Assembly (NCBI GenBank): GCA_004375895.1
Contig: SOJW01000068.1
Span: 640 to 64,639, forward strand
Source: Candidatus Stahliibacteriota bacterium
GTDB taxonomy: Bacteria; Hydrothermota; Tepidihabitantia; B3-TA06
DNA: 64,000 nucleotides
Reading direction: 5' to 3'
Positions 5,760 to 21,244 of this stretch are shown in pieces. Position numbers and translations under genes: made by a program. The notes below the pieces were generated by a model. That model was given only the letters and a program-made list of their open reading frames with translations, was not told where the DNA came from and did no database searches. How positions within the stretch are numbered: position 1 is the stretch's first letter; each line of letters begins with the position of its first letter.

Positions 5760-6560
5760 ATGAAACGCTTAGTAGTAAAGAGAGGGTTGATGGTGAGCCT
5801 TGTGATCCTTTTGCTTGCAATCTCAGGTTGTGATCTATTCGAGGGCGTCAACAAGATCGAATACCCCTTCACCTATCGTTTATACGAAACCCCGGGTTCC
5901 CCTGTCTCGCTTATCGTTTCTATTGATTTCTTCGATGAAACCCCTGACTTAAGTGGCGTGGATCATCAATGGGAGCTTCGCGGCGATACGATCTGGATTC
6001 TCCTGAAGGGAAACAACGAGGAAGACGAGGTCTCGGGTTCACACTCCAACACCCTTCCTGTAGACGTAGGAGCCCTGGAGAACGGAAACTACACCCTTCT
6101 TTTCGAAGGCAAAGATGAAGAACAAGACGCCTTCGTGCTTGCGGTAAAAGACAGCATCTACCTGGTGGAAGGGGAAGGCGAGGAGGTGGCTCTGTATTAC
6201 GGGGTGGACACACTGCACCGGCTTTTCGAGAACATGCTGCTGCTGGAGATGGCGTACGACACTTCCCAGGCACCGTACAGTGATTCGCTCAAGGAGGCCC
6301 TCACAGCCCTGGGCGCAGCCGAGACCGCTCTTGAACCGGGCTTCTACTCTATCTTTTCTGTCGATTCACAAGGGGAGGTGTCCGGCAGTAGAGTATCTAA
6401 TCATCCATCGTTTATCACCCACTCAGCGCTTTTTGCATACGATGGAGATACGTTGGAATTAGAAGGTGTCTTCAAAACCTACCAAGATCAATTGGAGTAT
6501 CTGAGTCTACGTATGGGTAATGGATTTGACCTTCACAAGCCTCACATCTTCGGCGAGTAA
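5760..6560 (+). CDS. Hypothetical lipoprotein
   Basis: Signal peptide with lipobox LAISGC, SD GGAGG, promoter TTGACA-16-TATCTT at 5708-5735; no family recognised. Confidence 0.7.
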   Translation: MKRLVVKRGLMVSLVILLLAISGCDLFEGVNKIEYPFTYRLYETPGSPVSLIVSIDFFDETPDLSGVDHQWELRGDTIWILLKGNNEEDEVSGSHSNTLPVDVGALENGNYTLLFEGKDEEQDAFVLAVKDSIYLVEGEGEEVALYYGVDTLHRLFENMLLLEMAYDTSQAPYSDSLKEALTALGAAETALEPGFYSIFSVDSQGEVSGSRVSNHPSFITHSALFAYDGDTLELEGVFKTYQDQLEYLSLRMGNGFDLHKPHIFGE

Positions 6561-6576: not shown

Positions 6577-7590
6577 CTATTCTGCGGAAGCCTCTTCCCA
6601 CTCAACGGCTTTAGCCGCCAGTTCCGCAATATTGATGTTCACAGGGCAGGCGCGACCGCACCGTCCGCAGCCAAGGCACTGGTAGGAGCCGAACACCTGG
6701 GGGAAGTAAGAAAACTTGTGCATAAGCCGCTGGCGCCAGCGCTCGCGGCCCGACGGCCTGGGGTTGTGGCCCGAGGTCTCCAGGGTGTAGCCCTCGTACA
6801 AACAGGAGTCCCACTGACGGGAACGCAGTCCGCGCGAACCCCTGGACGCATCGCTTACGTCAAAGCAGTGGCAGGAAGGGCACACAAACGCGCACGTCCC
6901 GCACCCGATGCACGGGTTGTGGACCCTGTCCCAGAAGTTACTGTCTACCATTAACTTAAGCTTGTCCGCGATTCCTTCAAAGTTGTACTTCTCAATCTTG
7001 TCTTCCGCCCGACGGCGGTCGGCCTCCAACTGGGAGACATCCCCGACTTCCTCAACGTCCAGACCTTGGATAGCTGCCTCCCCCTTCTTCGATGGCGTCT
7101 CTATAAGATACCCATCCTCCGTAGGATAGATGAAGATGTCCGCGCCCTCGGACTTGTAAGGAGAACCCTCCACCGAGGTGCAGAAGCATGAAGGCCACGG
7201 TTCGGAGCACGCGAGACCTACGATTAACGTTCGCTCAAACCGCTGCATAAAGTAGGGATCCTTATAGCCCTCCTCCCCCACCTGGTTGAACATCCGCTCC
7301 AGTTCACCGATTCCGGCAATGTCGCAGGGACGCACACCCCACAGAACGTTGGGTTTGACCTCATCCTTGGGAAGAATCGTCTTCTGGGCCTTGAAGTAAA
7401 ACAGCACCTCGTCTTGCGGAAAGAAGACCTCTTTGGGCGAGAAGTTACCCAGAAGAACGTTGGACTGCCATTGATCGAACGAGTCTAAGGCCCGGTAGAA
7501 GTATCGGTTATCCTCTTTGGTGAGACCCACGATCTGCCGATCCTTGGAAAGATGGTCGTAGAGGGTTTTGAGGACGGGAACTTTCTTCAT
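6577..7590 (-). CDS. 4Fe-4S dicluster protein, AsrA/FlxB/sulfhydrogenase-beta family
   Basis: GVRPCD, C.EPWPSCFC, CIGCGTCAFVCPSCHCF, RQWDSC, CLGCGRCGRACP. Confidence 0.88.
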   Translation of the reverse strand: MKKVPVLKTLYDHLSKDRQIVGLTKEDNRYFYRALDSFDQWQSNVLLGNFSPKEVFFPQDEVLFYFKAQKTILPKDEVKPNVLWGVRPCDIAGIGELERMFNQVGEEGYKDPYFMQRFERTLIVGLACSEPWPSCFCTSVEGSPYKSEGADIFIYPTEDGYLIETPSKKGEAAIQGLDVEEVGDVSQLEADRRRAEDKIEKYNFEGIADKLKLMVDSNFWDRVHNPCIGCGTCAFVCPSCHCFDVSDASRGSRGLRSRQWDSCLYEGYTLETSGHNPRPSGRERWRQRLMHKFSYFPQVFGSYQCLGCGRCGRACPVNINIAELAAKAVEWEEASAE

Positions 7591-8555
7591 AAGATAAACT
7601 CCTGGGGGTCTTCCTTCTTGTATGTAGCCAGTGGCGGCAGTGCCTCGGGGTCAACGCCTGCCTCGAACCCGAAACGCTCGCGCACCACAAGGTTCATCTT
7701 CCGGGTCAGCCATAACAATTTCACTCCCATAGGACACGCCTCCTCGCACGCACCGCAGTCTACGCACCGCCCGGCCTGGTGATAGGTTCGTATAAGCTGC
7801 CATATTGCGAGATCTGTGGGCTCCAACCCCTTGTCCACCCACTTTGGCTGGGTGATGTCTACAAAGCACTCGTCGCAGTTGCAGGTAGGACACGCCTGCC
7901 GGCACGCGTAGCACCGGATGCAAGCTGACATCTCAGACATCAGGTACTGGTAACGTTCCGGGGCAGGTTTGTTCTCGAATTCGCGGATCGAGTCGTAGCC
8001 GTCGTCTTCGACGTCCGGTTCTTTGATTGAATCCCCGACTACTACATCGGAGATAACCGGGGCATGATGTCTGCAAGCCACGCAGTTGGAGGGCATTAGG
8101 TCGAAACAGGAGATTTCTTTGGTTCCCTCGGTGGTCTCAAAAGACCACTTATCACCATTGGATGAAGCGGCAACAATTTCTCCCGCCTTTTCCCTTGCCA
8201 CCTGCCTTGACAGCATTCCCGGACAGTTAACCCCGATGATGAAGAGCCGGTCCCTATCTATTTGATTTTCCTTGAGTAAGGCCACGATCGAACGGGAGTC
8301 GCAACCCTTGGCCACTATGCCTATCTTGTGCGGGGTGTTACGGGTAGTACGATATCTTAAGAGATAATTTGCGAGATTTATGAGACCGAACGACGGCCAC
8401 ACGAGTTTATCGATATCCTCGACCTTGTCGATGAACACCGGCTGGGTGCGCATGGAGTTATCACCCTGGCCGTAGCCGATTACGAAATCTACCTTGCCTT
8501 CTTGCAATATCTTGCGCGCTTCCTCGCGGATGGAATTAGTGAGAGATTTAGACAT
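7587..8555 (-). CDS. FlxC/FdhB-like Fe-S protein (F420-reductase beta N-terminal-like plus 4Fe-4S dicluster)
   Basis: KIGIVAKGCDSRS, IIGVNC, CVACRHH, CIRCYACRQACPTCNC, GRCVDCGACEEACP; start at ATG 8555. Confidence 0.85.
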   Translation of the reverse strand: MSKSLTNSIREEARKILQEGKVDFVIGYGQGDNSMRTQPVFIDKVEDIDKLVWPSFGLINLANYLLRYRTTRNTPHKIGIVAKGCDSRSIVALLKENQIDRDRLFIIGVNCPGMLSRQVAREKAGEIVAASSNGDKWSFETTEGTKEISCFDLMPSNCVACRHHAPVISDVVVGDSIKEPDVEDDGYDSIREFENKPAPERYQYLMSEMSACIRCYACRQACPTCNCDECFVDITQPKWVDKGLEPTDLAIWQLIRTYHQAGRCVDCGACEEACPMGVKLLWLTRKMNLVVRERFGFEAGVDPEALPPLATYKKEDPQEFIL

Positions 8556-9165
8556 CACCCCGATTCCATTTTTCAAAGAAGCTCAACCCTTCAAATCTCT
8601 GCAAACCGGGATCGGGAATCAAAAAGCTCTTGTATACCTTTACCTGTTTCTTCTTCGTTTTTCTGAGACGTGCAAAGCGTTTTTCACGATGCGCCAGCTT
8701 GATCTTCCAGTTCCCTCCCATTCTCTTAACTATCCCATCTCTGGTTACTTGTCGTTTAGGAGGGTTGTAAATAAAGCATTCGAGTGTCTCAAGAACCTTC
8801 GAGGGGATTACCCAGTAGGTTCCTCCATGAATCTCACGCTCTTCCTCAGGTCTAAAAGCTTCTTCAATGAAAAAGAGGTAATAATAGTTTTCACGAGTGG
8901 TATACGACTTCAAGGTCAATGCTCCTATGCTGTGCCCCCTCCTGACGTGTGCCTTACCGTGGAACCTGGGCCGCACCACTAATTCTATCTCCAGATATTC
9001 AGATTTCCCTTTAACGTTACGTTTAATAATCCATGTACGCGGCCTCACTTCTCCATAAGGAAGGTACAACTGGCAACCCAGATTCAACAGCTTTAACATA
9101 ATAATAGTTTCAGCATAGTCAACTTCATTCATGTTATCTAGAATTGAACTCACGCTCTCATTCAC
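8548..9165 (-). CDS. Hypothetical basic protein, N-terminus resembles PD-(D/E)XK group-I-intron-like endonucleases with degenerate active site
   Basis: AETIIMLKLLNLGCQLYLPYG resembles E..v...Ll..G..V..P.G motif; canonical D and QxK not seen; overlaps both neighbours. Confidence 0.5.
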   Translation of the reverse strand: MNESVSSILDNMNEVDYAETIIMLKLLNLGCQLYLPYGEVRPRTWIIKRNVKGKSEYLEIELVVRPRFHGKAHVRRGHSIGALTLKSYTTRENYYYLFFIEEAFRPEEEREIHGGTYWVIPSKVLETLECFIYNPPKRQVTRDGIVKRMGGNWKIKLAHREKRFARLRKTKKKQVKVYKSFLIPDPGLQRFEGLSFFEKWNRGDV

Positions 9166-9589
9166 TTGGCCAATCCCTTTTCTTCAAAAACTGACTAGTA
9201 TCCTTAACCTGCTTGACTCCGTCGGTTACTTCCTTGACCACCTCGGCGAACTTACCGCCCTCGGCGGCAGAGACCCAGGAGAAGCGAACCCGGCCTTTTT
9301 CCAGACCCACGTATTCGAGCAAGTCGAGCATCGTTGCGAACTTGCGGCGGGCGTAGTAGTTGCCTTCAAGGTAGTGACAGTCCCCGGGATGACATCCGGA
9401 CACCAGCACCCCGTCAGCGCCTTCCTGAAGCGCTTTAAGGATAAACTGGGGGTTCACCCGTGCCGAGCAGGGCACGCGTAAGACACGCAGTGTCGTAGGA
9501 TACTGGATACGCGAGGTCCCTGCCAGGTCAGCACCGGCATAGGAGCACCAGTTGCATAAGAAAGCCAGGATTTTCGGATCATCGTTCAT
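9158..9589 (-). CDS. mvhD: MvhD/FlxD [2Fe-2S] subunit
   Basis: KILAFLCNWCSYAGADLAG, RVPCSARV, GCHPGDCHY, WVSAAEG. Confidence 0.93.
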   Translation of the reverse strand: MNDDPKILAFLCNWCSYAGADLAGTSRIQYPTTLRVLRVPCSARVNPQFILKALQEGADGVLVSGCHPGDCHYLEGNYYARRKFATMLDLLEYVGLEKGRVRFSWVSAAEGGKFAEVVKEVTDGVKQVKDTSQFLKKRDWPSE

Positions 9590-9591
9590 AT

Positions 9592-10806
9592 TCAATTTCC
9601 TCCGCCTGCCCGACCCGTGTTCTGGTTGTCGTGTTGGAACTTAGGCCAGGGGCTTGAGACCAGCCCTTTTGAATCGCTGTGAACCGCGTAAAAACAGCTA
9701 TCCAGTGACCCAACGTATACGGTCCCATCTGAGCCTATCGCTGGCGATGATTTTATCTCGCCGCCGATTTTATATCTCCACTTGCGTTCGCCTTCAGGCG
9801 TAAAAGCGTAAAGGTAACCTACCAGCTGCATGTTACTTAATTTCCTACCCACCCAGTCGTTCACCCCGAAGTATATGGTCCCATCCGAGCCTATGGTTGG
9901 AGTTGTTTCAACATTACCGTAACCAATTTCTTCGTCAAGTCTCCATTTTTCTGTGTAGTCCGAGTTCAGAACGCTGAAATGGTTCCCTCCTAAATATAGT
10001 GTACCGTCAGTATCTATTGCTGGCGAAGTCCACTCAGATGTCCAAACAACATATTGTAAAATGTCAAGCTTAAACTTAAGCTCCCCCTGGGGAGTAAACA
10101 CATAAAAACTACCCCCTTCCGTACAAAAACATATGTTGCCTTCACCATCTATCGCCATGGAAGAAATGGTGGTAGTGGACCACATACCAGGAACTTCAAA
10201 GCTCCATTTAAGATTACCTAGTGTATCTACTGCATAAATCATGTTACTAATACTGACATATAACGTGCCATCTAACCCTATCGCTGGAGGAAACATTGTC
10301 ATCCAACCTTTAATTTGTGATGATTCCCACTTCAGCTCTCCTTCAGGTGTGATTGCATAGAGACGACCACCGGTAGCCGCAACATATACAGTTCCATCAT
10401 GATCAATCGCAGGTGATGATAGTGTATAGTAGGTCTCACATTTCCATTTCAGCTTGCCTTCGGGTGAAATCGCATAGGTATAACCGTCCCACGGGTTGAT
10501 ATATACCGTTCCATCAGCCCCTATGGTAGGTGAAGCGACTATTTGCCCGTCAGTCTTAAAACTCCACTTGAGGTTCCCTTCAGGACTAAAGGCATACAGA
10601 CAACTGTCCATTGAGGTGACGTATACCGTTCCGTCATGTCCGATTGCCGGAGAAGACCTTATCGGGCCCCCGGTCTTGTACTTCCACTTCAGCGTACCCG
10701 GCCCCTCGGTTTTGCATTGAGTGGAGAGAAGTAAAACCACGCTGAAAAGTAAGGTGCTGAGAATCCTCAACTTACCTTTCAGTAACTGATGGTGTCGTCC
10801 ATTCAT
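9592..10806 (-). CDS. PQQ-binding-like beta-propeller protein, probable lipoprotein (paralog A)
   Basis: Repeated SSPAIG.DGTVY...LYA..P.G.LKW units; hydrophobic N-terminus ending TQC. Confidence 0.85.
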   Translation of the reverse strand: MNGRHHQLLKGKLRILSTLLFSVVLLLSTQCKTEGPGTLKWKYKTGGPIRSSPAIGHDGTVYVTSMDSCLYAFSPEGNLKWSFKTDGQIVASPTIGADGTVYINPWDGYTYAISPEGKLKWKCETYYTLSSPAIDHDGTVYVAATGGRLYAITPEGELKWESSQIKGWMTMFPPAIGLDGTLYVSISNMIYAVDTLGNLKWSFEVPGMWSTTTISSMAIDGEGNICFCTEGGSFYVFTPQGELKFKLDILQYVVWTSEWTSPAIDTDGTLYLGGNHFSVLNSDYTEKWRLDEEIGYGNVETTPTIGSDGTIYFGVNDWVGRKLSNMQLVGYLYAFTPEGERKWRYKIGGEIKSSPAIGSDGTVYVGSLDSCFYAVHSDSKGLVSSPWPKFQHDNQNTGRAGGGN

Positions 10807-10808
10807 AA

Positions 10809-11945
10809 TCAATTTCCTCCGCCTGCCCGACCCGTGTTCTGATTATCGTGTTGGAACTTAGGCCACGGGCTATCTGCAAGGCCTTTGGAATCGGAGTGAA
10901 TTGCGTAAAAACAGCTATCCAGTGACCCAACGTATACGGTCCCATCTGAGCCTATCGCTGGCGAACTGAAAATTTCACTATCAATATCTGCTTCCCATCT
11001 CAGAGAACCATCGGCATTTAATGCAATTAACCCTCGATCCTTAGTTCCGATATAAATTGTACCATCTGAACCTACTGCAGGAGATGCAGGAGAAAAAACT
11101 CTTAAAGTGCTATCGATTATATATCGCCATTTCAAATTTCCCGTTGGATTAATCGCCCAGAGGCAGCCATCAGAATTCACATATATTGTTCCATCCGAAC
11201 CTATCACAGGAAACGCCAACTCGTTCGTAAAAACATGTTGAACGTCAAGCTGGGCTTTATGTTCTCCTTGAGGCGTAAGAACGTGAAAACCACCCACATT
11301 CGTACAAAAACATATGTTGCCTTCACTATCTATCGCCAAGGGTGCAGTAGTAGTAGGGCACGTATCAGGAACCTCAAAACTCCACTTAAAATTACCCAGA
11401 GAATCATGGGCGTATACTTTATTAGATCCCCCCGAATACACCGCACCACCTGCCGCTATAACAGGAGGGAAAATATTCAAACTAGTATCCAGGGAAGATT
11501 TCCACTTCAGCTTTCCTTCTGGCGTGATAGCAAAAAGATAAGCATGGATATTCGCAACTAATAGTGTTCTATCATTAGCAATCGCAGGTGATGATACGGA
11601 CTGGGTCTCATATTCCCATTTCAGTTCGCCATCAGGAGTAATAGCATAAGTATAAGCATCCCATGATGAGATGTATACCGTACCATCAGCTCCTATGGAA
11701 GGTGAAGCGTAAATTTTGCCGCTAGTCTGATATTTCCACTTGAGGTCCCCTTCCGGACTAAAGGCATACAAACAACTGTCCATTGAGGTGATGTATACTG
11801 TGCCGTCATGTCCAATTGCAGATGAAGACATAATCGGACCATCAGTTTTGTACTTCCACTTCAGCGTACTCTGCCCCTCGGATTTGCATCCTGAGATAAG
11901 CAAAAGCATTGCACAAAACACTAAGATACGGGGTTTTTTATCCAT
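10809..11945 (-). CDS. PQQ-binding-like beta-propeller lipoprotein (paralog B)
   Basis: Same repeat; lipobox LISGC; C-terminus SPWPKFQHDNQNTGRAGGGN identical to paralog A. Confidence 0.85.
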   Translation of the reverse strand: MDKKPRILVFCAMLLLISGCKSEGQSTLKWKYKTDGPIMSSSAIGHDGTVYITSMDSCLYAFSPEGDLKWKYQTSGKIYASPSIGADGTVYISSWDAYTYAITPDGELKWEYETQSVSSPAIANDRTLLVANIHAYLFAITPEGKLKWKSSLDTSLNIFPPVIAAGGAVYSGGSNKVYAHDSLGNFKWSFEVPDTCPTTTAPLAIDSEGNICFCTNVGGFHVLTPQGEHKAQLDVQHVFTNELAFPVIGSDGTIYVNSDGCLWAINPTGNLKWRYIIDSTLRVFSPASPAVGSDGTIYIGTKDRGLIALNADGSLRWEADIDSEIFSSPAIGSDGTVYVGSLDSCFYAIHSDSKGLADSPWPKFQHDNQNTGRAGGGN

Positions 11946-11975
11946 TATCGACTCTCCTTTCCGAAGTGTAGCTCT

Positions 11976-12140
11976 TCACCCTCCCCCTTATCCCCTGCCC
12001 GACAGGGGCACGCTGTCCCGTCGAGGGAGGGGTGAAATTAAGGAAGCTTTTAGTCCTTGAACTAAAAGCCAACCGCCCCAATATCTCCCCCTTGATGGGG
12101 GAGAACGCCTCTCCGTAAGGAGAGGTAAGAGGGGGTGGAA
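11976..12140. repeat. C/G-run REP-like palindrome cluster (family also near 17841-17880, 26521-26575, 52188-52235, 53728-53770, 61741-61830, 62085-62125, 63085-63345)
   Basis: Recurring CCCCCTTGACGGGGGAGG..GGGGGTGA and TCACCCTCCCCC..TCCCC..AAGGGAGGGG motifs in intergenic gaps. Confidence 0.7.
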
Positions 12141-12166
12141 TGAAAAATCTTACCATCTCAAATATC

Positions 12167-15100
12167 CTATACTCCACAGCACCCGATTATATCGTCCTCT
12201 TCCCACATCAGCTGCTCGAAGGCGGACACCAGGTCCTGGTTGGTGAATCCGGCAAGGTCAATGGAGTTTGACCTGCAGGAGGCGGCGCATCCGCCGCAGC
12301 CCTTGCACAAAGCGGCATTTACCGCAGCGACCTTCTTTTCAATACCGAGAACACGCTTCTCTGCCAGTTCGATTGCTCCGTACGGACAGACCTCCACGCA
12401 GTAGCCGCAGCCGATGCAGGTTCGCTCGTTGGTCAGGGCTATCTTGCCCTCGGCCTCGATGTGGTCTTTATTGAGGATAAGTACCGCTCTTGCGGCAGTT
12501 GCCGCAGCCTGCGCGATCGCCTCATCGGTGAACTTGGGCGCGTGGGCCAGACCACAAAGGTAGACACCGTCGGTGGCGAAATCTACAGGGCGGAGCTTCA
12601 TGTGCGCCTCGAGGAAGAATCCGTCCTCGTTGAGAGGCACCTTGTAGTGCTGGGCCAGGACTTTATTGGAATCGGCTTCGGCCACGATGCCGGTGGAGAG
12701 GGCTACGATATCTGGGGAGAATTCTACTTCACGTCCGATGAGTTCGTCCATTATTCGTACAGTTATTGTCCCGTTTTTGTCCACTATTTGGGGCTCTTTT
12801 TCCTGGTCAAATCTCATGAATAACACACCCTTCTGCCGCGCCTCTTCGTACGCAAGCTCTTTAAGTCCGTAGGTTCGCAGGTCCCGAAACATGATGATGA
12901 CCTCGGTATCAGGCGAGGTTTCTTTTATGGTCAAGGCGTTCTTCACGGCCTCGGTGCAGCACACACGAGAGCAGTAAGGATGCTCGTCATTGCGCGAGCC
13001 AACGCACTGGATCATCACCACGGTTTTGGCGTTGAAGTTACCTTTGTGCAGGGATTCCTCCAACTCCCGCTGGGTGATGATCAGCGGATCGCCAGACAAA
13101 TATTCATCAGGTTTGGGTTGGTATTCAACCGCTCCGGTGGCGATGATGGTCGCGCCGTGCTCGATCACTTCACCGTTGGACAGGGTCGTTTTGAAGCTTC
13201 CTACAAATCCTTCTACAGACTGAACTTCGGTGTCCTTGTATACAGTGATATTGGAATCTTCCTCGACTTGTGCAATAAGTTCGGCAAGGAAAACCTGAGC
13301 GTCTTCACCCCAAAGGGTCTTGGTCAAATGAGTCAGATTTCCGCCCAGCTGGTCGGATTTTTCGATGAGAACCGTCTCAAATCCTGCCTGTGAGATGGTT
13401 TTTGCCGCAGTCATGCCTGCCACTCCCCCGCCGATCACCAACGCGCGCTTGGTAACGGGAAGTTCGATATTGGGAAGCGCCTTAAGTCTCGCTGCCTTGG
13501 CCACCGCCATGCGCACCAGGTCCTTGGCCTTGGCTGTAGCTTTTTCCGGCTCGTGCATGTGCACCCAGGAGTCCTGATCGCGGATGTTCGCCATCTCAAA
13601 CAGATACTTGTTCAGTCCGGCTTCGCGGATGGTGGACTGAAACAGCGGCTCGTGCGTCCTCGGCGTGCAAGCAGAGACAACCACGCGGTTTAGACGGAAG
13701 TTATTGATAATTTCTTTGATCTTCTCCTGGGTGTCCGAGGAGCAGGTGTAGAGGTTTTCGGTGGCAAACACCACGTTGGGCAGGGTCTTTGCGTATTCTA
13801 CAACCTCAGGCACGTTGACCACCAAGCCAATGTTGATGCCGCAGTGGCAGACAAACACACCGATGCGTGGCGGCTCGGTGAAGACGTCGCGCTCAAGAGG
13901 CAGGTCCTTGGCCTTGACCTCGGTGTTGCGCGCTTCTCCTAAAAGCCCCTGCACCATACCAACAGCACCCGATGCCTGAGCCACGCTCTCCGGGATATCC
14001 TTGGGTGCCGAAGCCGCACCTGCGACGAATACCCCGTAGCGGGTAGTAAGCATGGGCGCAAAGGTGGAGGTTTTCACGAAACCCTGCTCATCAAGCTCTA
14101 TACCTAACGCACTAGCAAATTGAGGTGAAGACCGAGGGGGTTCTAACCCCACGGAGAGCACCACCAGATCGAAGGTTTCGGTAGCAAGTTTACCGTCATC
14201 GGTCTCGTAAGTTAAAGAGACTTCTTTGGTTACAGGATCTTCTACCATCTTGGCCACCCTTCCCCGAACGTAGCGGACGCCAAACTGCTCCTGGGCGCGT
14301 TCGATATACTTGTCAAAATCCTTGCCGTAGGCACGGATATCCATGTAGAAGATGGTTTTCTGCATCTGGGGCGCGTGCTCTGCGGCGATAATCGCCTCCT
14401 TGGTGGCGTACATGCAGCAGACAGACGAGCAGTAGGGCCGGTTGATATGCCTGTCGCGGCTGCCCACACACTGGATCCAGGCGACTTTTCCGACCTCCTT
14501 GCCGTCCGAAGGTCGCAGGATATGCCCGGCAGTTGGACCGGATGAGGACATAAATCGTTCAAACTCGATGCTTGTAAGAACGTTCGGGTAGCGTCCGTAG
14601 CCGTATTCGCTTAACCGTTTGGCATCGAACTCATCGAATCCGGGAGCAAGAAGCACCGCGCCGACTTCGATCTCGGTCTCATTATCTTTATCATTATACC
14701 GCACCGCGTCGGGCGGACAGATATTGGCACAAAGCCCGCAGCCAATGCACTTATCCTTGTCAATGGCATACGCCAGGGGCACGGCCTGAGGATAGCTGAT
14801 GTAGGCGGCGCGGCGCTCGGAGAGTCCCTCGTTGTAGGAGTCTATGGCAGATACCGGACAGTGCACAGCGCAAAGATTACAGGCGGTGCAGGCTTCGATA
14901 TCGATGTAACGCGCGTGCTTGCGCAGCTTGGCTATGAAATTCCCGGCTTTGCCGTCAAGGGCGACCAGTTCGGTGTTGGTGATGATGTTGATGTTGAGAT
15001 GACGACCGGTATCCACCAGCTTTGGTGAGAGGATGCACATGGAACAGTCGTTGGTTGGAAAGGTTTTGTCCAGCTGGGCCATGACCCCGCCGATGGTGGG

Positions 15101-15205
15101 TTTTGAATCCACAAGATAGGCCTTTATGCCGCCGTCGGCCAGGTCGAGCGCGGCCTGGATGCCTGCTATTCCGCCGCCGATCACTAATGTAGCACCTTTA
15201 CCCAT
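12167..15205 (-). CDS. hdrA: Heterodisulfide reductase subunit A-like flavoprotein, 1012 aa, two FAD modules
   Basis: VIGGGIAG, MAQLDKTFPTNDCSMCI, IQCVGSR..CSSVCC, GVFVCHCGINI, SACTPRTHE, second VIGGGVAG and QCVGSR, ferredoxin CxxCxxCxxxC motifs. Confidence 0.93.
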   Translation of the reverse strand: MGKGATLVIGGGIAGIQAALDLADGGIKAYLVDSKPTIGGVMAQLDKTFPTNDCSMCILSPKLVDTGRHLNINIITNTELVALDGKAGNFIAKLRKHARYIDIEACTACNLCAVHCPVSAIDSYNEGLSERRAAYISYPQAVPLAYAIDKDKCIGCGLCANICPPDAVRYNDKDNETEIEVGAVLLAPGFDEFDAKRLSEYGYGRYPNVLTSIEFERFMSSSGPTAGHILRPSDGKEVGKVAWIQCVGSRDRHINRPYCSSVCCMYATKEAIIAAEHAPQMQKTIFYMDIRAYGKDFDKYIERAQEQFGVRYVRGRVAKMVEDPVTKEVSLTYETDDGKLATETFDLVVLSVGLEPPRSSPQFASALGIELDEQGFVKTSTFAPMLTTRYGVFVAGAASAPKDIPESVAQASGAVGMVQGLLGEARNTEVKAKDLPLERDVFTEPPRIGVFVCHCGINIGLVVNVPEVVEYAKTLPNVVFATENLYTCSSDTQEKIKEIINNFRLNRVVVSACTPRTHEPLFQSTIREAGLNKYLFEMANIRDQDSWVHMHEPEKATAKAKDLVRMAVAKAARLKALPNIELPVTKRALVIGGGVAGMTAAKTISQAGFETVLIEKSDQLGGNLTHLTKTLWGEDAQVFLAELIAQVEEDSNITVYKDTEVQSVEGFVGSFKTTLSNGEVIEHGATIIATGAVEYQPKPDEYLSGDPLIITQRELEESLHKGNFNAKTVVMIQCVGSRNDEHPYCSRVCCTEAVKNALTIKETSPDTEVIIMFRDLRTYGLKELAYEEARQKGVLFMRFDQEKEPQIVDKNGTITVRIMDELIGREVEFSPDIVALSTGIVAEADSNKVLAQHYKVPLNEDGFFLEAHMKLRPVDFATDGVYLCGLAHAPKFTDEAIAQAAATAARAVLILNKDHIEAEGKIALTNERTCIGCGYCVEVCPYGAIELAEKRVLGIEKKVAAVNAALCKGCGGCAASCRSNSIDLAGFTNQDLVSAFEQLMWEEDDIIGCCGV

Positions 15206-15239
15206 CTATGACCTCCATGTTCAAGAAACGCCGCAGCAT

Positions 15240-15286
15240 GTAGCGCGAGACTTTAGTCTCGCAGCGGAGCTAAAGCTCCGCACTAC
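15240..15286. repeat. Inverted doublet of GTAG-headed REP hairpins (REPIN-like)
   Basis: GTAG-CGCGAGACT-TT-AGTCTCGC followed by CGGAGCT-AA-AGCTCCGCA-CTAC. Confidence 0.75.
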
Positions 15287-15302
15287 GTTGATTAATGATA
15301 CC

Positions 15303-15369
15303 GTAGGGGCACGGCAGAGCCTGCCCCTTGAGCGATTCGTGCCGCTCATAGGGCATGCCGTGCCCCTAC
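15303..15369. repeat. Second GTAG...CTAC inverted REP doublet
   Basis: GTAGGGGCACGGCA...TGCCGTGCCCCTAC terminal inverted repeat. Confidence 0.75.
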
Positions 15370-15380
15370 CTTTATATGTA

Positions 15381-15410
15381 AATCTGCGCTAATCTGCGTC
15401 ATCTGCGGTT
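15381..15410. repeat. AATCTGCG short tandem repeat (reverse copies at 52321-52347 and 61921-61966; single units near 53771, 63339)
   Basis: AATCTGCGCT AATCTGCGTC ATCTGCGGTT directly after gene ends. Confidence 0.65.
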
Positions 15411-15433
15411 TATTCGACATTTCGGACAACCTC

Positions 15434-16249
15434 CTACCCATCTACTACCTCCACGTACAAGGGACGCTCTTTTCTTATCTTATCGAGACGTGCCCTGGTT
15501 TCGCGCTCAAGCTCAACGATCAACTCGAACACCCGGTGGGCTGGGATTCCTGTTGCCTCAGCAACGTCAACTGCGGAACAAGGCTCTTTAAGATTTTCCA
15601 GAATCAGCCCCTTCTCGTACTCCTCTCGAAGTATATGCTTAATCATTGTATCGTAGTCTTGCGGATCGAGCTTCTCATCGAACACGTTGCCCTTGCGCAC
15701 AAGCTCCAGCTCCTTGGAAAGAAGCCAGCGCACCGGCTCAGACGTGCATACACGTTTCATTGCGGCGACCCGTAACACAAGCTCCGGCCTGCCAAGTGCT
15801 TGAGACGATAATGTTCCAAATTCCTTTAACTTTTCCTCAAACCCGTTGATAGCCTGGGCAAGCCCGAACGCGTAGGTTGTATCGGCATGATAGAAGGCGA
15901 CGCGGTCACGGCGCAGACCGGCGATCTCCAATAAATCGGCAAGATGGTTGATACGGGCCAGGGCATGATGGTTGCCTGGTTCGTAGTGGCAGTCACCCAG
16001 AGGACACAGGGCGAAGAACAGGCCATCGGCACCCTTTGTCAGCGCCTGGACCCCATCTGCAAGGTCGAACCTGGCAGAGCAGCGCAAATTGATAAAGGCG
16101 ATGTCGGCAGGGTAGGACATACGCTGCATACCGGCGTAATCAAGCGCAAACCCGGCCCAGTCGCAGGTGAAGCCTAATATCTTAGGAACATGCTCAGATT
16201 CTCCAGAACTTGCTGATTGGGGATGAGTTGTGTGTGTTACGGGCTTCAT
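15434..16249 (-). CDS. MvhD-like [2Fe-2S] protein with C-terminal extension ending in a winged-helix-like segment
   Basis: KILGFTCDW, LRCSARF, LCPLGDCHYEPGN; C-terminal SAVDVAEATGIPAHRVFELIVELE. Confidence 0.8.
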   Translation of the reverse strand: MKPVTHTTHPQSASSGESEHVPKILGFTCDWAGFALDYAGMQRMSYPADIAFINLRCSARFDLADGVQALTKGADGLFFALCPLGDCHYEPGNHHALARINHLADLLEIAGLRRDRVAFYHADTTYAFGLAQAINGFEEKLKEFGTLSSQALGRPELVLRVAAMKRVCTSEPVRWLLSKELELVRKGNVFDEKLDPQDYDTMIKHILREEYEKGLILENLKEPCSAVDVAEATGIPAHRVFELIVELERETRARLDKIRKERPLYVEVVDG

Positions 16250-17835
16250 GATGTCTCACCCCAAGCTCGTATCTGAGCTTTAATAGTATCTCTGGACTTG
16301 ACTGGATCAGAGATGGCGAACACCGGGCATCCGGCGATGCACAAACCACATAACGTGCAGAATCTTGGCGACATACGCGCTTTATGACCGGTATCGGTCC
16401 GCTCTAAGATAGGCGCTCCGTAAGGACATACTGCGGCACAGTAGCCGCATCCGATGCAGACTTCTTCATCGATTTGTGCACCAGGCAGTCGCTTGGGTTT
16501 CGTATCGAATAACGCCTTGATACGGGCGGCCACAACGAACGCGTGGTTTATGGTTTCCTCCATGGGCATAGGCGTGTGCGCACCGCCCACAACGAAGATA
16601 CCAGGATGCACCACGTCCCGGGGTCGTATCCGGTAGCGGCGCTGGGCAAGGTAACCGTTCGTATCCTGTGGAATCCTGAGGGCTTGTGCGAGATTCTCAG
16701 AAAGGTTGCCCACCAGTTTTCCCAGCTTCACGTGCGCACCCTTCCAACCCGTAACACCCGTAACACCCGTACCCCTACGGGGCATTTTCACTATTACTCG
16801 GAGCTTGCACTCAGGTCGCAAGGACATAACACCCGTAACACCCGTAACACCCGTAACACCACCTGGGATACTCCCTCTGATGATTTCGATGTTATGTTTT
16901 TCCGCACCCTCCTTGAACCCTTCGGGAAGAACCACAGATTCAGGCATAAAGAAAACGATTCGCTCCTCCGGCTTTTCGTGCCGCAGCATCACCGCATCCC
17001 AAAAAGCGGTTTCCAGAAGGAACGGATGTACCCCTTCCTTGACCTCGAACGCCAGCGGACCGCGGAACTTACCCCTATCGCGCCACCGGTACTCGAACTC
17101 GAAAAGATTGCCTCCGACCTCACGCACGCCGGTGGCAACAACAATCGCTCCCACCTCCTCTTCGGCATCATTGGAAAGCTTTACTTCGTAGCCGTGCAGC
17201 GATTCTTCAAGGTTTACAAGCTCTGTTTCCTGATAAACCGTTACGTGAAGTTTGTCCTGTAACCCATCGTAAAGTCGATGCAAAAGCTTTTCGGAATCCT
17301 CGCCAGAGGGCCAGACCGTGCGGGTTCTGCGCAGGGTTCCGCCTAAGCGATTGGATTTTTCAATAAGAACAACGTCTATACCTTGCTCAGCTAAAGCACG
17401 CGAACACGCCAGCCCGGCAGGACCGGCACCGATGATTAGTACACGTTCCAAGAGGTCGAGATCCCATTCGGTAAGATGCTCTCTGGTTACGAGCTCTGCC
17501 AACCCCATAGAAAGGAGTCTTTGGGCCTTAAGTGTAGCTTCGGACTTGTTATCATGAACCCAGGCGCAGCGCTCGCGCAGGTTTACGAGCTGGTAGGGAT
17601 TACCTCCGGCCAGGAATTTGAAGATGCTCCCGTGGGTTCTCTCGTCGCACGCGCCGAAGAGGAGGGCTCCTTCGACACCATTGAGATGCTCACGGGCCGC
17701 GCCGTCGCCTAGTTGGGCAAGTGTCTCTACTGATTGGACTTGTGCGAGAGAGTTAAAGTGTTTCTTTAACTTCTCAAGGTCAATCTTTTGGGAGATTTCG
17801 CACCCTTGGCACAAGAAAATTTTAACCTTTTCCAT
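16246..17835 (-). CDS. Divergent HdrA-like flavoprotein (530 aa) carrying an in-frame repeat insertion
   Basis: FLCQGC, GACDERTHG, VNLRERCAWVH, IIGAGPAG, GIFVVGG, CIGCGYCAAVCPY, CTLCGLCIAGCP; lacks QCVGSR..CC motif. Confidence 0.8.
   Translation of the reverse strand: MEKVKIFLCQGCEISQKIDLEKLKKHFNSLAQVQSVETLAQLGDGAAREHLNGVEGALLFGACDERTHGSIFKFLAGGNPYQLVNLRERCAWVHDNKSEATLKAQRLLSMGLAELVTREHLTEWDLDLLERVLIIGAGPAGLACSRALAEQGIDVVLIEKSNRLGGTLRRTRTVWPSGEDSEKLLHRLYDGLQDKLHVTVYQETELVNLEESLHGYEVKLSNDAEEEVGAIVVATGVREVGGNLFEFEYRWRDRGKFRGPLAFEVKEGVHPFLLETAFWDAVMLRHEKPEERIVFFMPESVVLPEGFKEGAEKHNIEIIRGSIPGGVTGVTGVTGVMSLRPECKLRVIVKMPRRGTGVTGVTGWKGAHVKLGKLVGNLSENLAQALRIPQDTNGYLAQRRYRIRPRDVVHPGIFVVGGAHTPMPMEETINHAFVVAARIKALFDTKPKRLPGAQIDEEVCIGCGYCAAVCPYGAPILERTDTGHKARMSPRFCTLCGLCIAGCPVFAISDPVKSRDTIKAQIRAWGETS
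16748..16859 (+). repeat. 112-bp (CCCGTAACA)n-flanked element, copy 1, inside the HdrA-like gene
   Basis: 101/112 identical to 50128-50239 by manual alignment. Confidence 0.9.
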
Positions 17836-17947
17836 CACCTCCCCCTTGACGGGGGAGGACTAAGGTGGGGGTCACCCTCTATTATTATTGTTGAGGTTTG
17901 AGCGAACTTAAAGGGTCGCACTACATGGAGAGGTGTGTTACGGGTCA

Positions 17948-18637
17948 TCACTTCTCCCCCACTTTCGACTCTGATTCCAGATTCATTTCTCCGCAGATCG
18001 AACAGTCGGGAGCCTCGTAATCGTATGGATGTTTATGGACACCAGGCATGGGCTTGGAAACGTCCTTGAGGGTTATCGCCGCCGTAGGACAGATGTAGAC
18101 GCAGGTGCCGCAGCCGATACAGCGTTCGGAAAGCCGCTCGATGGGCGGACCCACGTGGCGCTCGGTGCCGCGATCTATGAACCCGATGGCTGAAGCACCG
18201 ATGATCTCATGGCAGGCACGCACGCAAAGCCCGCAGAGTATGCACTTATCGTTTAAGACCAGGGGATAGCGGGATTTCTCGATACCATATTCACGGGCCA
18301 GTTTCTGGATAAGCGAAGCGTCAGGAGCACGGGCAAGAAGAAGCTCAAGCACCGCCTTGCGGTTGCGGATCACCCGCTCGGTCGAGGTTTTGACCTCGAT
18401 ATCGGGAGCAACTTCATAAATACAAGAAGTTACTAGCTTTGTGCGGCGTCCTGTTGTAACCTCCACAAGACATAACCGGCAGGCAGCGTAAGGTTCAAGC
18501 GCTTCGTGATAACAGAGAGTGGGGATATCAAACCCCTCACGCCGGGCCACCTCGAGGATTGTCTCTCCTTTATAACCAACCACTTCCCTGCCGTCTATGG
18601 TAAATTTGGCCTGACCTTCCCAGTCTGCGTGACTCAC
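17948..18637 (-). CDS. NuoG/HydA N-terminal-like Fe-S protein without catalytic domain
   Basis: IPTLCYH..ACRLCLVEV..LVTSC [2Fe-2S], CILCGLCVRAC, CIGCGTCVYICP; ends after ferredoxin domain. Confidence 0.88.
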   Translation of the reverse strand: MSHADWEGQAKFTIDGREVVGYKGETILEVARREGFDIPTLCYHEALEPYAACRLCLVEVTTGRRTKLVTSCIYEVAPDIEVKTSTERVIRNRKAVLELLLARAPDASLIQKLAREYGIEKSRYPLVLNDKCILCGLCVRACHEIIGASAIGFIDRGTERHVGPPIERLSERCIGCGTCVYICPTAAITLKDVSKPMPGVHKHPYDYEAPDCSICGEMNLESESKVGEK

Positions 18638-18728
18638 AACACTATCTCTCCATCATTACAGATTCCAGCATTATCCAGACGATCTAAAACATATACGGAC
18701 AGTCCAAAAGGTGTGTTACGGGCGTGGT

Positions 18729-20663
18729 TCATTGTGACTTCCCCCCGGAGTGTGTGTTACGGGTGTTACGGGTCACCGCGTCGAATTTACACACGTCAAG
18801 ACAAACGCCGCATTTGATGCAGGCATCCTGATCTATCACGTGGACTTGTTTGCGTTCGCCTGTAATCGCGTCAACCGGGCAGTTGCGGACGCATAAGGTG
18901 CATCCGGTGCAGTTTTCGTTGATCTCGAAGTTGATAAGCGCGGTGCACACCCCGGCAGGGCAGCGCTTATTCTTAATGTGTTCAAGGTACTCGTCGCGGA
19001 AGAAACGCAAGGTGGAAAGCACTGGGTTTGGTGCCGAGCCGCCTAAGGCACACAAAGACGAATCTTGCATCGCCTTACCCAGCTCTTCCAGGAGATCAAG
19101 GTCCGATTCCTGTCCCTCGCCCTCAGTGATACGTTTCAAAATCTCGTGGGTTTGAGATAAACCTTCCCTGCATGGCACGCACTTGCCGCAGCTTTCATCC
19201 TTCAAGAACTCGGTGAAGAACTTGGCCACGTCCACCATGCAGGTCTCGGAGTCCATAACGATCATGCCGCCCGAGCCCATCATCGAGCCTGCCTCCCACA
19301 GCCTGTCGAAGTCTACTTCAAGGTCCAAGAGATTCGCGGGGATACAGCCTCCGGAAGGCCCACCGGTCTGCACCGCCTTGAACTTTTTGCCCTCGGGTAT
19401 CCCGCCGCCGATGTCGTAGATGATTTCCCTGAGTGTAATTCCCATGGGAACTTCCACGAGACCCGCGCGGTTCACCTTGCCCACCAGGGAGAAGATCTTG
19501 GTTCCGGTAGACTCCGGATTGCCGATCGAGGCAAACCACTCCGCGCCCCGCACCGCGATTACTGGAACGTTGGCCCAGGTCTCCACGTTGTTGAGTGTGG
19601 TGGGTTGGTTCCATAAACCTTTTTCGACGGTGTGGACGTACTTGGCGCGGGGTTCGCCCGGCTTGCCCTCGATTGACGCCATAAGTGCCGTGGATTCGCC
19701 GCACACGAACGCACCCCCGCCCTTCACGATTCTGAGATCGAAGTTGAACCCGGTACCGAAGATGTCAGATCCCAAAAGACCGTGCACACGTGCGTCATCT
19801 ATCGCCTTCTCGAGCCGCTTTACTGCCAAGGGGTACTCGGCGCGGACGTATACATAGCCCTGCTGTGAACCTATGGCAAAGGCTCCGATGAGCATCCCTT
19901 CAAGGATGGAATGCGGATCGCCTTCGAGAAGCGAGCGATCCATGTATGCGCCAGGGTCGCCCTCGTCCGCGTTGCAGATAACGTAGCGGTAGCCTTCTGC
20001 GGCCTTGCAGTAGCGCCACTTGCGGCCGGTTCCGAATCCGCCGCCCCCGCGGCCACGCAGACCGGAGGCATCCACCATATCAATAACCTCGTCCGGCTTC
20101 ATCTCGGTAAGGACTCTGTAAAGGCCGCGGTATCCGCCCCGCGCAATATACTCCTCAATGGATTCAGGGTCGATGATCCCGCAGTTGCGCATCGCGATAT
20201 GTTGCTGCTTGGCGGTAAATTCCAGCCCAAACAGATTCTCCACAGCCGCAATTTCGGGCGGAACATTCTCCAGGGGATAGCGGTAGCGGGTGTTACGGGT
20301 GTAATCTTCAATCTCTTCTATCTTTCCTAAGAGCCCCTCTTTGACGACCTTGCCTTCCTTGACTGCAGAAAGAATCTCGGCGACCTGCTCCGGTTTCACG
20401 TGCGAGTAAGTTATCCTGGGCCAGCCCGGTTTGAGGATATCCATAAGCGGCTCCTCATAGCACATTCCGATACAGCCGGTTCGGGCCGACGCGGCTCCGT
20501 TGCCGAACTGTTTTAAGGTCTCTTCGACTGCATGGATGACATCCTTGGCTCCTGATGCGATGCCGCAGGTGGCAGCACCAACCATCACTTTAAGATGCGG
20601 CGGATGTATCCTGCGCTCACCCTCGGACGCTACCTTTTCCAAGTCGGCTAATGATTTTATCAT
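18729..20663 (-). CDS. NuoF/HydB-like FMN/NADH-binding subunit with N-terminal thioredoxin-like [2Fe-2S] and C-terminal ferredoxin
   Basis: GLRGRGGGGF, CNADEGDPGAYMDR, AFVCGESTAL, ESCGKCVPCREG, CALG, CTGCTLC..CP, CIKCGVC. Confidence 0.93.
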   Translation of the reverse strand: MIKSLADLEKVASEGERRIHPPHLKVMVGAATCGIASGAKDVIHAVEETLKQFGNGAASARTGCIGMCYEEPLMDILKPGWPRITYSHVKPEQVAEILSAVKEGKVVKEGLLGKIEEIEDYTRNTRYRYPLENVPPEIAAVENLFGLEFTAKQQHIAMRNCGIIDPESIEEYIARGGYRGLYRVLTEMKPDEVIDMVDASGLRGRGGGGFGTGRKWRYCKAAEGYRYVICNADEGDPGAYMDRSLLEGDPHSILEGMLIGAFAIGSQQGYVYVRAEYPLAVKRLEKAIDDARVHGLLGSDIFGTGFNFDLRIVKGGGAFVCGESTALMASIEGKPGEPRAKYVHTVEKGLWNQPTTLNNVETWANVPVIAVRGAEWFASIGNPESTGTKIFSLVGKVNRAGLVEVPMGITLREIIYDIGGGIPEGKKFKAVQTGGPSGGCIPANLLDLEVDFDRLWEAGSMMGSGGMIVMDSETCMVDVAKFFTEFLKDESCGKCVPCREGLSQTHEILKRITEGEGQESDLDLLEELGKAMQDSSLCALGGSAPNPVLSTLRFFRDEYLEHIKNKRCPAGVCTALINFEINENCTGCTLCVRNCPVDAITGERKQVHVIDQDACIKCGVCLDVCKFDAVTRNTRNTHSGGKSQ

Positions 20664-21208
20664 TTACCAGGCTTCCCGGAGGTTTGGGAGGAGGGCGAGG
20701 GCTCTGGTGGGTGTCTTACGGGTGTTACGGGTGAGGAGGGCCGATACTTCTTGATGATCTCCGGCACCTTATCCTGTCGTACGTGGGCGTGGGTCTCCTC
20801 GTCGATCATCACCGCAGGTGCGATGGAACAGCATCCGACGCATCGCACTCCCTGCAGGGTGAACTGGCCGTCTCGAGTTGTCTCGTCCTGCTCAACACCA
20901 AGATCGCGCTTGAACCGATCCATAATCAGGCTAGCTCCCTTAACGTGACACGCTGTTCCCAGACAGACATTAATTATGTGCTTACCTTTGGGTTTTAATG
21001 AGAACGCGGAATAGAACGTAGCCACATGATAGACCTGAGCTACAGGTATGCGCAATCTGGCCGCGACCTGGCGCATGGCCGCTTCGGGCAGATACCGGTA
21101 GCGCACCTGAAGCTCCTGAAGGGCCGCTATGAGAGACGCCCTCTTTTCTTCAACTTCGTTAAGGATGGTATAAGCGTTTTCGCTCACCAACCCTTTTAGT
21201 TGATCCAT
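20660..21208 (-). CDS. NuoE/HydC-like [2Fe-2S] subunit; start at ATG 21208
   Basis: VATFYSAF, INVCLGTACHVKG, VRCVGCCSIAPAVMID. Confidence 0.92.
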   Translation of the reverse strand: MDQLKGLVSENAYTILNEVEEKRASLIAALQELQVRYRYLPEAAMRQVAARLRIPVAQVYHVATFYSAFSLKPKGKHIINVCLGTACHVKGASLIMDRFKRDLGVEQDETTRDGQFTLQGVRCVGCCSIAPAVMIDEETHAHVRQDKVPEIIKKYRPSSPVTPVRHPPEPSPSSQTSGKPGK

Positions 21209-21216: not shown

Positions 21217-21244
21217 ATTCTACACGGTTACTGAAGAATGTCAA
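21217..21244 (-). promoter_or_regulatory. Promoter of nuoEFG-hdr cluster, probably leaderless
   Basis: TTGACA-16-TAGAAT-TCGCGTCA-ATG. Confidence 0.7.

Follow-up and report, generated by a model that had tools for sequence, protein, structure and literature searches.

We analyzed a gene cluster in a 64,000-nucleotide stretch of DNA (the window; positions 640–64639 of contig C57) from a metagenome-assembled genome (MAG; G000) of 2.2 Mb in 75 contigs, which is 90% complete. The cluster combines genes related to nuoEFG, hdrA, mvhD, flxC and flxB, and we asked what kind of redox complex it may encode. Flavin-based electron bifurcation provides low-potential ferredoxin to anaerobes living near the thermodynamic limit. 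The public contigs nearest to the longest hdrA gene of the cluster (hdrA1012) carry the labels candidate division WOR-3 or Candidatus Stahlbacteria, at 87–90% identity; very few members of WOR-3 have been cultured. Genes were assigned using Pfam, NCBIfam and searches against solved structures. Twelve open reading frames (ORFs) are arranged head to tail on the minus strand between 21208 and 6577 (Table 1). A convergent gene lies 3' of flxB at 5748–6560, and the genes flanking the cluster are housekeeping genes. An earlier note on this DNA, made from the sequence alone, had listed nine of the genes, and all nine were present on that strand, in that order and within those limits. Three further ORFs on the same strand, two encoding beta-propeller proteins and one of 205 aa (orf205), are inserted among them and had gone unmentioned.

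Table 1. Genes and other features of the cluster, in the direction of transcription.
Feature	Position in window	Strand	Basis and remarks
Promoter-like TTGACA-16-TAGAAT	21217..21244	-	11/12 consensus positions; consensus match only; 9 nt upstream of nuoE ATG
bfuC (nuoE-like), 182 aa, thioredoxin-like [2Fe-2S] protein	20660..21208	-	PF01257, E 2.6e-51
bfuB (nuoF-like), 644 aa	18729..20663	-	Pfam: thioredoxin-like N-terminal domain, FMN/NADH core, SLBB, [4Fe-4S], C-terminal 2x[4Fe-4S] ferredoxin domain
bfuA (short nuoG-like), 229 aa	17948..18637	-	Fer2_4 and Fer4; [2Fe-2S] and 2x[4Fe-4S]; no catalytic/molybdopterin-like domain
hdrA530	16246..17838	-	N-terminal domain, FAD Rossmann motif, C-terminal 2x[4Fe-4S]
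mvhD271, long MvhD	15434..16249	-	PF02662, 3.3e-29; [2Fe-2S] MvhD domain and C-terminal extension of ~125 aa
hdrA1012, double HdrA with two GGGxAG FAD motifs	12167..15205	-	Alignments to 8rvu_a and 5odc_A; Cys map
11-bp hairpin between hdrA1012 and first propeller gene	12045..12070	-	Terminator-like scan; tail weakly T-rich; possible terminator or REP-like element
PQQ-like beta-propeller lipoprotein gene, 378 aa	10809..11945	-	PF13570 and PF13360; lipobox signal peptide to Cys20
PQQ-like beta-propeller lipoprotein gene, 406 aa	9592..10812	-	PF13570 and PF13360; lipobox signal peptide to Cys33
mvhD145 (flxD), canonical MvhD with five conserved Cys	9158..9595	-	PF02662, 2.8e-53
orf205, 205 aa, in mvhD145-flxC spacer	8548..9165	-	No Pfam or NCBIfam match
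flxC, FdhB/FrhB-family iron-sulfur (possibly flavin) subunit	7587..8576	-	FrhB_FdhB_C and Fer4; 7bkb_E, 9.7e-31
flxB, sulfhydrogenase beta/AsrA-like iron-sulfur subunit	6577..7590	-	Fer4_22, 2.1e-32; NCBIfam ShyB, AsrA, HydB; 9nez_B, 9.9e-44

The first three genes encode a NuoEFG-like module with the hallmarks of bifurcating enzymes. The best solved relatives of the NuoF-like protein were all HydB or BfuB subunits of such enzymes (9bov_B, 7t2r_B, 8oh5_B, 9n5u_B, 7q4v_B, 8a6t_B and 7p5h_B; E 1e-184 to 1e-213), and NuoF of complex I matched it at ~1e-107 to 1e-113 with coverage of the core only. In the A. mobile enzyme, the B2 cluster is described as bound by C438, C476, H525, C531 and C536, with a His that the same account gives as absent from non-bifurcating homologs (Schut et al. 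2022, PMC9304861). These residues of 7t2r_B align, ungapped, with C475, T513, H562, C568 and C573 of the BfuB encoded here, and about two-thirds of BfuB sequences are reported to have Thr at the second B2 position (PMC9304861). The B1 [4Fe-4S] motif was present (C492, C495, C498, C538). The C-terminal domain for two [4Fe-4S] clusters was complete (Cys585, 588, 591 and 595 with Cys615, 618, 621 and 625; Fer4 over residues 582–631), and this ferredoxin region aligned full length to HydB/BfuB chains. The N-terminal thioredoxin-like domain aligned to 7t2r_B and 9bov_B. Its [2Fe-2S] site differs from that of the usual Bfu in having three Cys (33, 64 and 68) and not four, the first Cys of the usual C-x4-C being replaced by Gly, as it is in the solved 9bov_B.

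The other two subunits fit the same family. BfuC carried a C-x4-C-x35-C-x3-C motif formed by Cys82, 87, 123 and 127. The short NuoG-like protein, BfuA, had its best solved match in a 247-aa NuoG-like chain (9mqx_A, 3.9e-43), and the His-ligated cluster is absent from it because there is no Cys between residues 72 and 132. A short NuoG with three clusters is the Type 2 BfuA pattern of PMC9304861, a type described there by a small BfuA, three clusters and extra subunits, and the BfuB ligands including the B2 His, the C-terminal 2x[4Fe-4S] domain and the [2Fe-2S] site of BfuC all agree with it. By sequence criteria the locus is thus a member of the Bfu family. BfuC, BfuB and BfuA are predicted to form a unit of the HydBC type, in which NADH and ferredoxin are handled together, and not the simple NADH interface that had been proposed for NuoEF. 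The MAG held no other NuoF, no [FeFe] hydrogenase, no AOR-family gene (PF01314) and no membrane arm of complex I; its sole NuoH-like gene sits in the Hun hydrogenase operon of the window. The NuoEFG-like module therefore belongs to its HdrA neighbors.

The HdrA proteins that follow differ in their cofactor sites. Alignments to the methanogen HdrA structures 8rvu_a and 5odc_A, a map of Cys residues and an alignment of the units identified HdrA1012 as a fused pseudo-dimer. Unit 1 (residues 1–440) has an FAD site, a TNDCSMC pair (Cys194/197 of HdrA), an inserted 2x[4Fe-4S] ferredoxin domain and an HA4 motif followed by a Lys, and unit 2 (441–1012) has an N-terminal cluster domain, an FAD site, an HA4-like motif and a C-terminal 2x[4Fe-4S] domain. 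Compared with its published description, not its sequence, BamE of class II benzoyl-CoA reductase has the same set of cofactors and domains, and only the first FAD of BamE is reported to bifurcate (Appel et al. 2026, bioRxiv 10.64898/2026.04.10.717634). HdrA530 resembles unit 2 and has neither the Cys194/Cys197 pair nor the inserted ferredoxin domain, and the HA4 cluster and its Lys are missing too (alignments to 5odc_A and to the halves of HdrA1012). It is most likely an adaptor and not a second bifurcation site.

MvhD271, encoded between the two hdrA genes, retains the four Cys of its [2Fe-2S] site, and together with HdrA530 it most likely serves as the adaptor between two modules. Its structural model (mean predicted local distance difference test score of 85.8) had a helical C-terminus with a winged-helix-like end, in which residues 226–267 form a helix-helix-strand-strand unit. 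A fold search with this model matched the MvhD domain only and found no solved counterpart of the C-terminal extension in the PDB. According to its published description, BamF is a long MvhD with a winged helix in contact with BamI (bioRxiv 10.64898/2026.04.10.717634). The parallel with the modeled MvhD271 is only a lead, because equally long MvhD proteins are common between HdrA genes in other phyla, including clusters without Bfu.

The downstream half of the cluster is of a widespread kind. FlxC matched FdhB of formate dehydrogenase-Hdr complexes and FlxB the beta subunit of Pyrococcus sulfhydrogenase I. Genes of the HdrA1012 type were found in 79 loci of Bathyarchaeia, Asgard archaea, Thermoplasmata, Bacillota and Desulfobacterota, with MvhD next and often FlxC and FlxB after it; the MvhD that follows these double HdrA genes is 53–78% identical to MvhD145. 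Across the genes of such hdrAA-mvhD-flxCB clusters in other phyla, identity was 26–44% for FlxC, 33–39% for FlxB and 42–78% for MvhD. None of the 79 loci, which are those most similar to HdrA1012 in other phyla, had NuoE, NuoF or NuoG within 10 kb, so the link to Bfu is not general to this HdrA clade. In the four loci that were checked, FlxB was followed by FlxA, recognized by its NAD_binding_1 and DHODB_Fe-S_bind domains.

No FlxA of this domain composition and no HdrB (CCG domain) was found in or next to the cluster of the window. The earlier note was right, then, that HdrBC and FlxA are missing here and that no high-potential subunit of the HdrBC type is encoded at the locus, as this region of the contig has no CCG gene. 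The absence did not extend to the genome: the search of other contigs, which the note had named as the check on its model, turned up a flxA-hdrC-hdrB operon on contig C7, and by gene content the finding counts against that model. The operon (L012:5655–10426, minus strand) reads flxA, hdrC, hdrB, an AhpD-like gene of the CMD family, two DsrE-like genes and a GcvH-like gene. Its HdrB has two complete CCG motifs, and no hdrA was present among the operon genes read. The operon pairs an NAD(P)H flavoprotein directly with HdrCB, beside proteins of sulfur-carrier or lipoyl type, and nfnAB lies 3 kb upstream.

Several lines of evidence connect this FlxA to the cluster. The FlxA-type iron-sulfur domain occurs in five proteins of the genome. 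The C7 protein was 48–56% identical, over its full length, to the four FlxA of the clusters in other phyla, and the next paralog 40–43%. Of 23 loci of the class outside the family to which this genome belongs, 21 had an ortholog of the C7 type (56–64% identity) immediately behind flxC-flxB or flxB, in many cases with a small HdrC-like gene next to follow flxA; one of the remaining two loci reaches a contig end and the other has a partial FlxB match and a gap before flxA. In a class-wide search, a flxA adjoining hdrC-hdrB and apart from flxB was found only in seven genomes of the family. Within the family, C7-type FlxA and window-type FlxC were both present in 7 of 11 genomes and both absent in the other four. 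Because its ortholog follows flxC-flxB so regularly elsewhere and co-occurs with FlxC, we consider that FlxA was relocated, by these comparisons, and not lost or replaced.

Two other loci of the genome carry related genes. On contig C50 (L010:6385–16022, minus strand), hdrC and hdrB are followed by an HdrL-like HdrA of 1125 aa with an inserted NfnB/GltD-like NAD(P)H domain, a double HdrA of 996 aa, mvhD, an FrhB-like gene and a gene with a PrcB_C domain. A sulfhydrogenase-type (group 3b-like) cluster at C53:3553–7608, composed of a HydB-like gene, a FlxA/HydG-like gene and a [NiFe] large subunit, is the source of the FlxB and FlxA paralogs.

The arrangement of the window is conserved within the family. 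G096, of the same genus, and G076 and G114, of the sister genus, show the same gene order, with proteins that are 63–96% identical. Partial data from G151 and G154 agree with the same arrangement, and G131 has pieces of the cluster at contig ends. Orthologs of HdrA530 were found in 6 of the 10 other family genomes and in none of 121 other genomes of the class. In a large protein collection, HdrA530 had about 15 clusters at 66% identity or more, after which full-length proteins fell to 34% or less. Truncated relatives (P0016 and P0017) reached 55%, and a truncated relative in G156 was a solitary gene with no cluster partners.

Linkage of Bfu to HdrA extends beyond the family. Among 16 Bfu loci from other WOR-3 genomes, 13 adjoin HdrA-family genes, which is not an unbiased rate, as eight of the loci were chosen for an HdrA match on the same contig; of the eight chosen by NuoF similarity alone, five did so. 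The genome with the closest NuoF outside the family (G005) has the order hdrC-hdrB(C7 type)-nuoE-nuoF-nuoG-hdrA(unit 2 type)-...-mvhD. Three genomes (G133, G105 and G113) share a pattern in which pieces of the two modules are fused: [HdrA N-piece::NuoE]-NuoF-[NuoG::double HdrA]-MvhD-HdrC-like-double HdrA-MvhD-FlxC-FlxB-FlxA. It parallels the order in the window and holds both Bfu and FlxA. ORF reading and Pfam confirmed the fusions in G133 (L150:7291–13350, C6) and G105 (L148:6974–16142, C60). The fusion of an N-terminal FAD piece of HdrA to NuoE spans 289–296 aa and that of NuoG to a double HdrA 1098–1129 aa. One match in the G133 frame was reported with an in-frame TGA, possibly a selenocysteine codon. 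In several further genomes, for example G018:C181 (L145), G080:C55 (L152) and G002:C11 (L156), the order is hdrC-hdrB-hdrL(N part)-nuoE-nuoF-nuoG-hdrL(C part). Here nuoE-nuoF-nuoG lie between the split HdrL parts, where the C50-type HdrL has its NfnB-like insert, which looks like a module swap at a single insertion point.

At the level of sequence, the fusions of NuoE and NuoG to HdrA are the strongest evidence that Bfu and HdrA act as one unit. With the conserved gene order, they bear out the proposal that the NuoEFG-like and HdrA/MvhD genes form one conserved unit. Set against the pattern of G133, G105 and G113, the family of the window appears to have lost unit 1 of the Bfu-linked HdrA and to have moved flxA.

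An experimentally solved precedent for joining Bfu to HdrA is BamGHI-BamF-BamE of class II benzoyl-CoA reductase, in the Geobacter metallireducens complex Bam[(BC)2DEFGHI]2 (Appel et al. 2026, bioRxiv 10.64898/2026.04.10.717634); Schut et al. 2022 (PMC9304861) call it "Bam-Bfu". According to the published description, on which our comparison rests in place of a direct sequence alignment, NADH and reduced ferredoxin are confurcated by BamGH, the electrons travel by way of BamI and BamF to the FAD of BamE at which bifurcation takes place, and BamE sends one electron to the HdrBC-like BamD and one to a tungsten site (bioRxiv 10.64898/2026.04.10.717634). That work showed that two different bifurcation modules can be stacked within a single enzyme, and it is only for this reductase that serial coupling of a HydBC-type and an HdrA-type module has so far been demonstrated by experiment. 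The cluster of the window shares with that description the HydBC-type NADH/ferredoxin module (BamGH for NuoE and NuoF), a short NuoG-like wire (BamI), and a fused HdrA dimer (BamE for HdrA1012) reached through an MvhD-type adaptor more than 100 aa longer than usual (BamF; compare MvhD271). It also shares a first thioredoxin reductase-like unit with a CxxC pair, a cluster beside the FAD and a Lys. The cluster differs in lacking the tungsten subunit BamB and BamC, and BamD at the locus, separate HdrC and HdrB being encoded elsewhere. The degenerate HdrA530, a second MvhD, and FlxC and FlxB (with FlxA elsewhere) are additions, and the genes can be read without a selenocysteine codon. The locus would thus resemble the BamDEFGHI part of the reductase, yet it has no BamB, by which that enzyme is defined.

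A second relative is the FlxABCD-HdrABC NADH dehydrogenase/heterodisulfide reductase of Desulfovibrio vulgaris, reported by Ramos et al. 2015 as cited in PMC5861303. The genome encodes every named part, namely FlxA (NAD-binding, 2Fe-2S), FlxB (AsrA/HydB-like), FlxC (FrhB/FdhB-like), FlxD (MvhD), HdrA, HdrB and HdrC, with FlxB, FlxC and FlxD next to hdrA in the window, but not the defining gene arrangement. The genes occupy two loci, split between flxB and flxA, they depart from the order hdrCBA-flxDCBA, HdrA has the fused double form, and the Bfu module, HdrA530 and MvhD271 are added upstream. The C7 operon continues with its AhpD-like, DsrE-like and GcvH-like genes and is not near dsrC. Compared with the Bfu types named in the sections of PMC9304861 that describe them, the cluster stands apart in having an HdrA/Flx assembly on its third-substrate side, which is found there only in Bam-Bfu. 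The fused and tandem HdrA genes of anaerobic methanotrophic archaea (Chadwick et al. 2022, PMC9012536) likewise have complementary halves, one with the N-terminal cluster domain and without Cys197 and the other the reverse. In the window, unlike there, the Cys197-bearing half comes first, and the partners are Bfu and Flx, not FdhAB or FrhB. The survey paper on WOR-3 mentions only MvhADG-HdrABC, and a literature search found no description of the arrangement in the window. By the sequence of its subunits the locus is of the Bfu kind, and the coupling of its modules is Bam-like, without the tungsten subunit.

Taken together, the best explanation we can offer is a FlxABCD-HdrABC complex extended by Bfu and encoded at two loci, on contigs C57 and C7, to which we give a probability of about one half. 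Most of this complex, a large and soluble iron-sulfur flavoprotein assembly in which two electron-bifurcation modules are joined, would be encoded by the cluster in the window. Mid-potential electrons from the first module (BfuC, BfuB, BfuA) would exit through the short BfuA and pass by MvhD271 and HdrA530 to the FAD of unit 1 of HdrA1012. HdrA1012 would be the second module, its first half carrying the bifurcating FAD with both output branches. The high-potential branch would run from HA4 to the HdrC-HdrB of the C7 operon, and from there to a disulfide or persulfide on a protein of the DsrE-, AhpD- or GcvH-like set. MvhD145 (FlxD), FlxC and FlxB would serve as the usual Flx wire to HdrA, and with FlxA, the NAD(P)H/FAD subunit supplied from C7, would make up an NAD(P)H-linked port. 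The whole enzyme would then couple NAD(P)H and ferredoxin to the reduction, or in reverse the oxidation, of its acceptor, probably a disulfide or persulfide bound to a protein. Either port could be the input and the other the output, and free ferredoxin may be the low-potential partner.

Several points weigh against this two-locus complex. If ferredoxin were both the donor to Bfu and the low-potential acceptor of HdrA, the net reaction would be trivial, with no gain, so that electrons must in fact take another course than in the simplest scheme. The co-occurrence of FlxA and FlxC (7/7 and 4/4) is weak as evidence for a link between the C57 and C7 loci, since the MAGs are related and incomplete. 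An NAD(P)H:disulfide reductase could be formed by the C7 operon on its own, and the hdrCB-hdrL-hdrAA-mvhD cluster of C50 could use or supply partners. The 11-bp hairpin and gaps of 221–228 nt leave room for more than one transcript, and the N-terminal [2Fe-2S] site of NuoF lacks one of its four usual Cys.

The model of the earlier note, in which the NuoEFG-like module took over the NAD(H) entry of FlxA, appears unlikely. FlxB and FlxC would then be only a wire to HdrA, the C7 operon would be a separate enzyme, and the acceptor of the cluster in the window would stay unspecified. It accords with the lack of FlxA at the locus in every family genome whose cluster was read, and with the nuoEFG-hdrA-mvhD cluster of G005, which had no flx gene in the part of the contig read. 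However, a clear flxA ortholog is kept on C7 and tracks the presence of flxC. Bfu and FlxA also coexist in one cluster in G105, G113 and G133 and therefore are not alternatives, so that the claimed replacement of FlxA does not hold. Without HdrBC or another acceptor, moreover, the HdrA would have no high-potential branch.

Less probable again is that two independent enzymes happen to be located together, one formed by Bfu, HdrA530 and MvhD271, the latter two on the third-substrate side, and the other a Flx-Hdr enzyme of HdrA1012, FlxD, FlxC and FlxB with FlxA and HdrCB from C7. Gaps of 228 and 221 nt and the hairpin after hdrA1012 would fit a division of this kind, as would the wide occurrence of HdrAA-MvhD-FlxCBA without NuoEF within 10 kb. 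Yet HdrA530 lacks every output cofactor, and therefore Bfu, HdrA530 and MvhD271 alone would have no evident substrate site. The overall order, with NuoG fused to a full double HdrA, is also kept in other WOR-3 classes.

A transhydrogenase without thiol chemistry, similar to Nfn or Stn, seems improbable. In such an enzyme FlxA would be the entry point for NADPH, and bifurcation at HdrA would deliver electrons to ferredoxin and, through Bfu, to NAD+. The presence of two separate nicotinamide-binding modules (FlxA and BfuB) along with ferredoxin-type domains is what such an enzyme would need, the clusters of G105, G113 and G133 contain a small HdrC-like ferredoxin and no HdrB, and Nfn-Bfu enzymes are described in PMC9304861. 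The genome, however, already has nfnAB, and the hdrB to which flxA is joined in the family of the window has its CCG motifs intact.

Complex I, a hydrogenase diaphorase and a Bam-type benzoyl-CoA reductase were all rejected as partners on the gene content of the genome. That NuoEFG serves as the N-module of complex I, or as diaphorase to a hydrogenase or formate dehydrogenase from another locus, is suggested by the NCBIfam names NuoE, NuoF and NuoG-like and by a membrane hydrogenase operon ~10–25 kb away in the window, but it is close to refuted. Unlike that of complex I, the NuoG here has 229 aa and no large C-terminal domain, and NuoF carries additional clusters specific to HydB. The Hun hydrogenase operon, in which the sole NuoH-like gene lies, contains a flavoprotein module of its own, and no [FeFe] hydrogenase was found. 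Last, the reading as a class II benzoyl-CoA reductase, or as some other Bfu-HdrA complex linked to a tungsten enzyme, has in its favor that BamG, H, I, E and F all have counterparts here, but it is refuted as far as a 90%-complete genome allows by the lack of any AOR-family gene, the absence of BamC and BamD from the locus and the housekeeping flanks.

Bam-type stacking of two bifurcation modules, without a tungsten enzyme, appears in the operon of the window and in WOR-3 relatives, where fusions tie the modules together, and this suggests a general building principle rather than a one-off. It is conceivable, though we hold this only tentatively, that the serial coupling of HydBC-type and HdrA-type modules is a general and much older design, used across the WOR-3 phylum for thiol/persulfide or nicotinamide redox. 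NAD(P)H-input modules (BfuCBA or the NfnB-like domain) would have been inserted into HdrA at the gene level and exchanged between lineages, and the family of the window would be a derived form in which the bifurcating half was lost from the Bfu-linked HdrA and FlxA-HdrCB moved to a second operon. For "orphan" HdrA-Flx clusters that lack HdrBC, relocated flxA-hdrCB operons offer a testable idea.

Three of the ORFs in the cluster are predicted passengers and not subunits. The two beta-propeller lipoprotein genes sit within a cytoplasmic redox operon. They are paralogs on the same strand, with 4-nt overlaps with each other and with mvhD145, and have a GC content of ~0.45, compared with about 0.54–0.55 in the flanking genes. 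Searches by tblastn found the two ORFs in this genome, three match regions in G096, one in G076 and none in G114, and the spacing in G151 suggests no propeller gene there. We rejected them as subunits of the complex on account of their lipoprotein signal peptides and their copy number of 0 to 3 among close relatives. The third, orf205, had no tblastn match in G096, G076 or G114 and would be either a strain-specific insertion or not a gene.

A search for the Rex operator TTGTGAA-N4-TTCACAA with up to three mismatches found a single site, which is distant from the operon, and fewer than expected by chance. The start of nuoE is likely the ATG at 21208, because the promoter-like site lies just before it and the alignment of relatives begins there. 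A longer ORF that starts with TTG at 21328 is probably spurious, as the alignments with relatives begin only at its residue ~41. This ATG falls just 9 nt past the -10 hexamer of the best promoter-like site, a spacing that suggests a leaderless or near-leaderless nuoE transcript.

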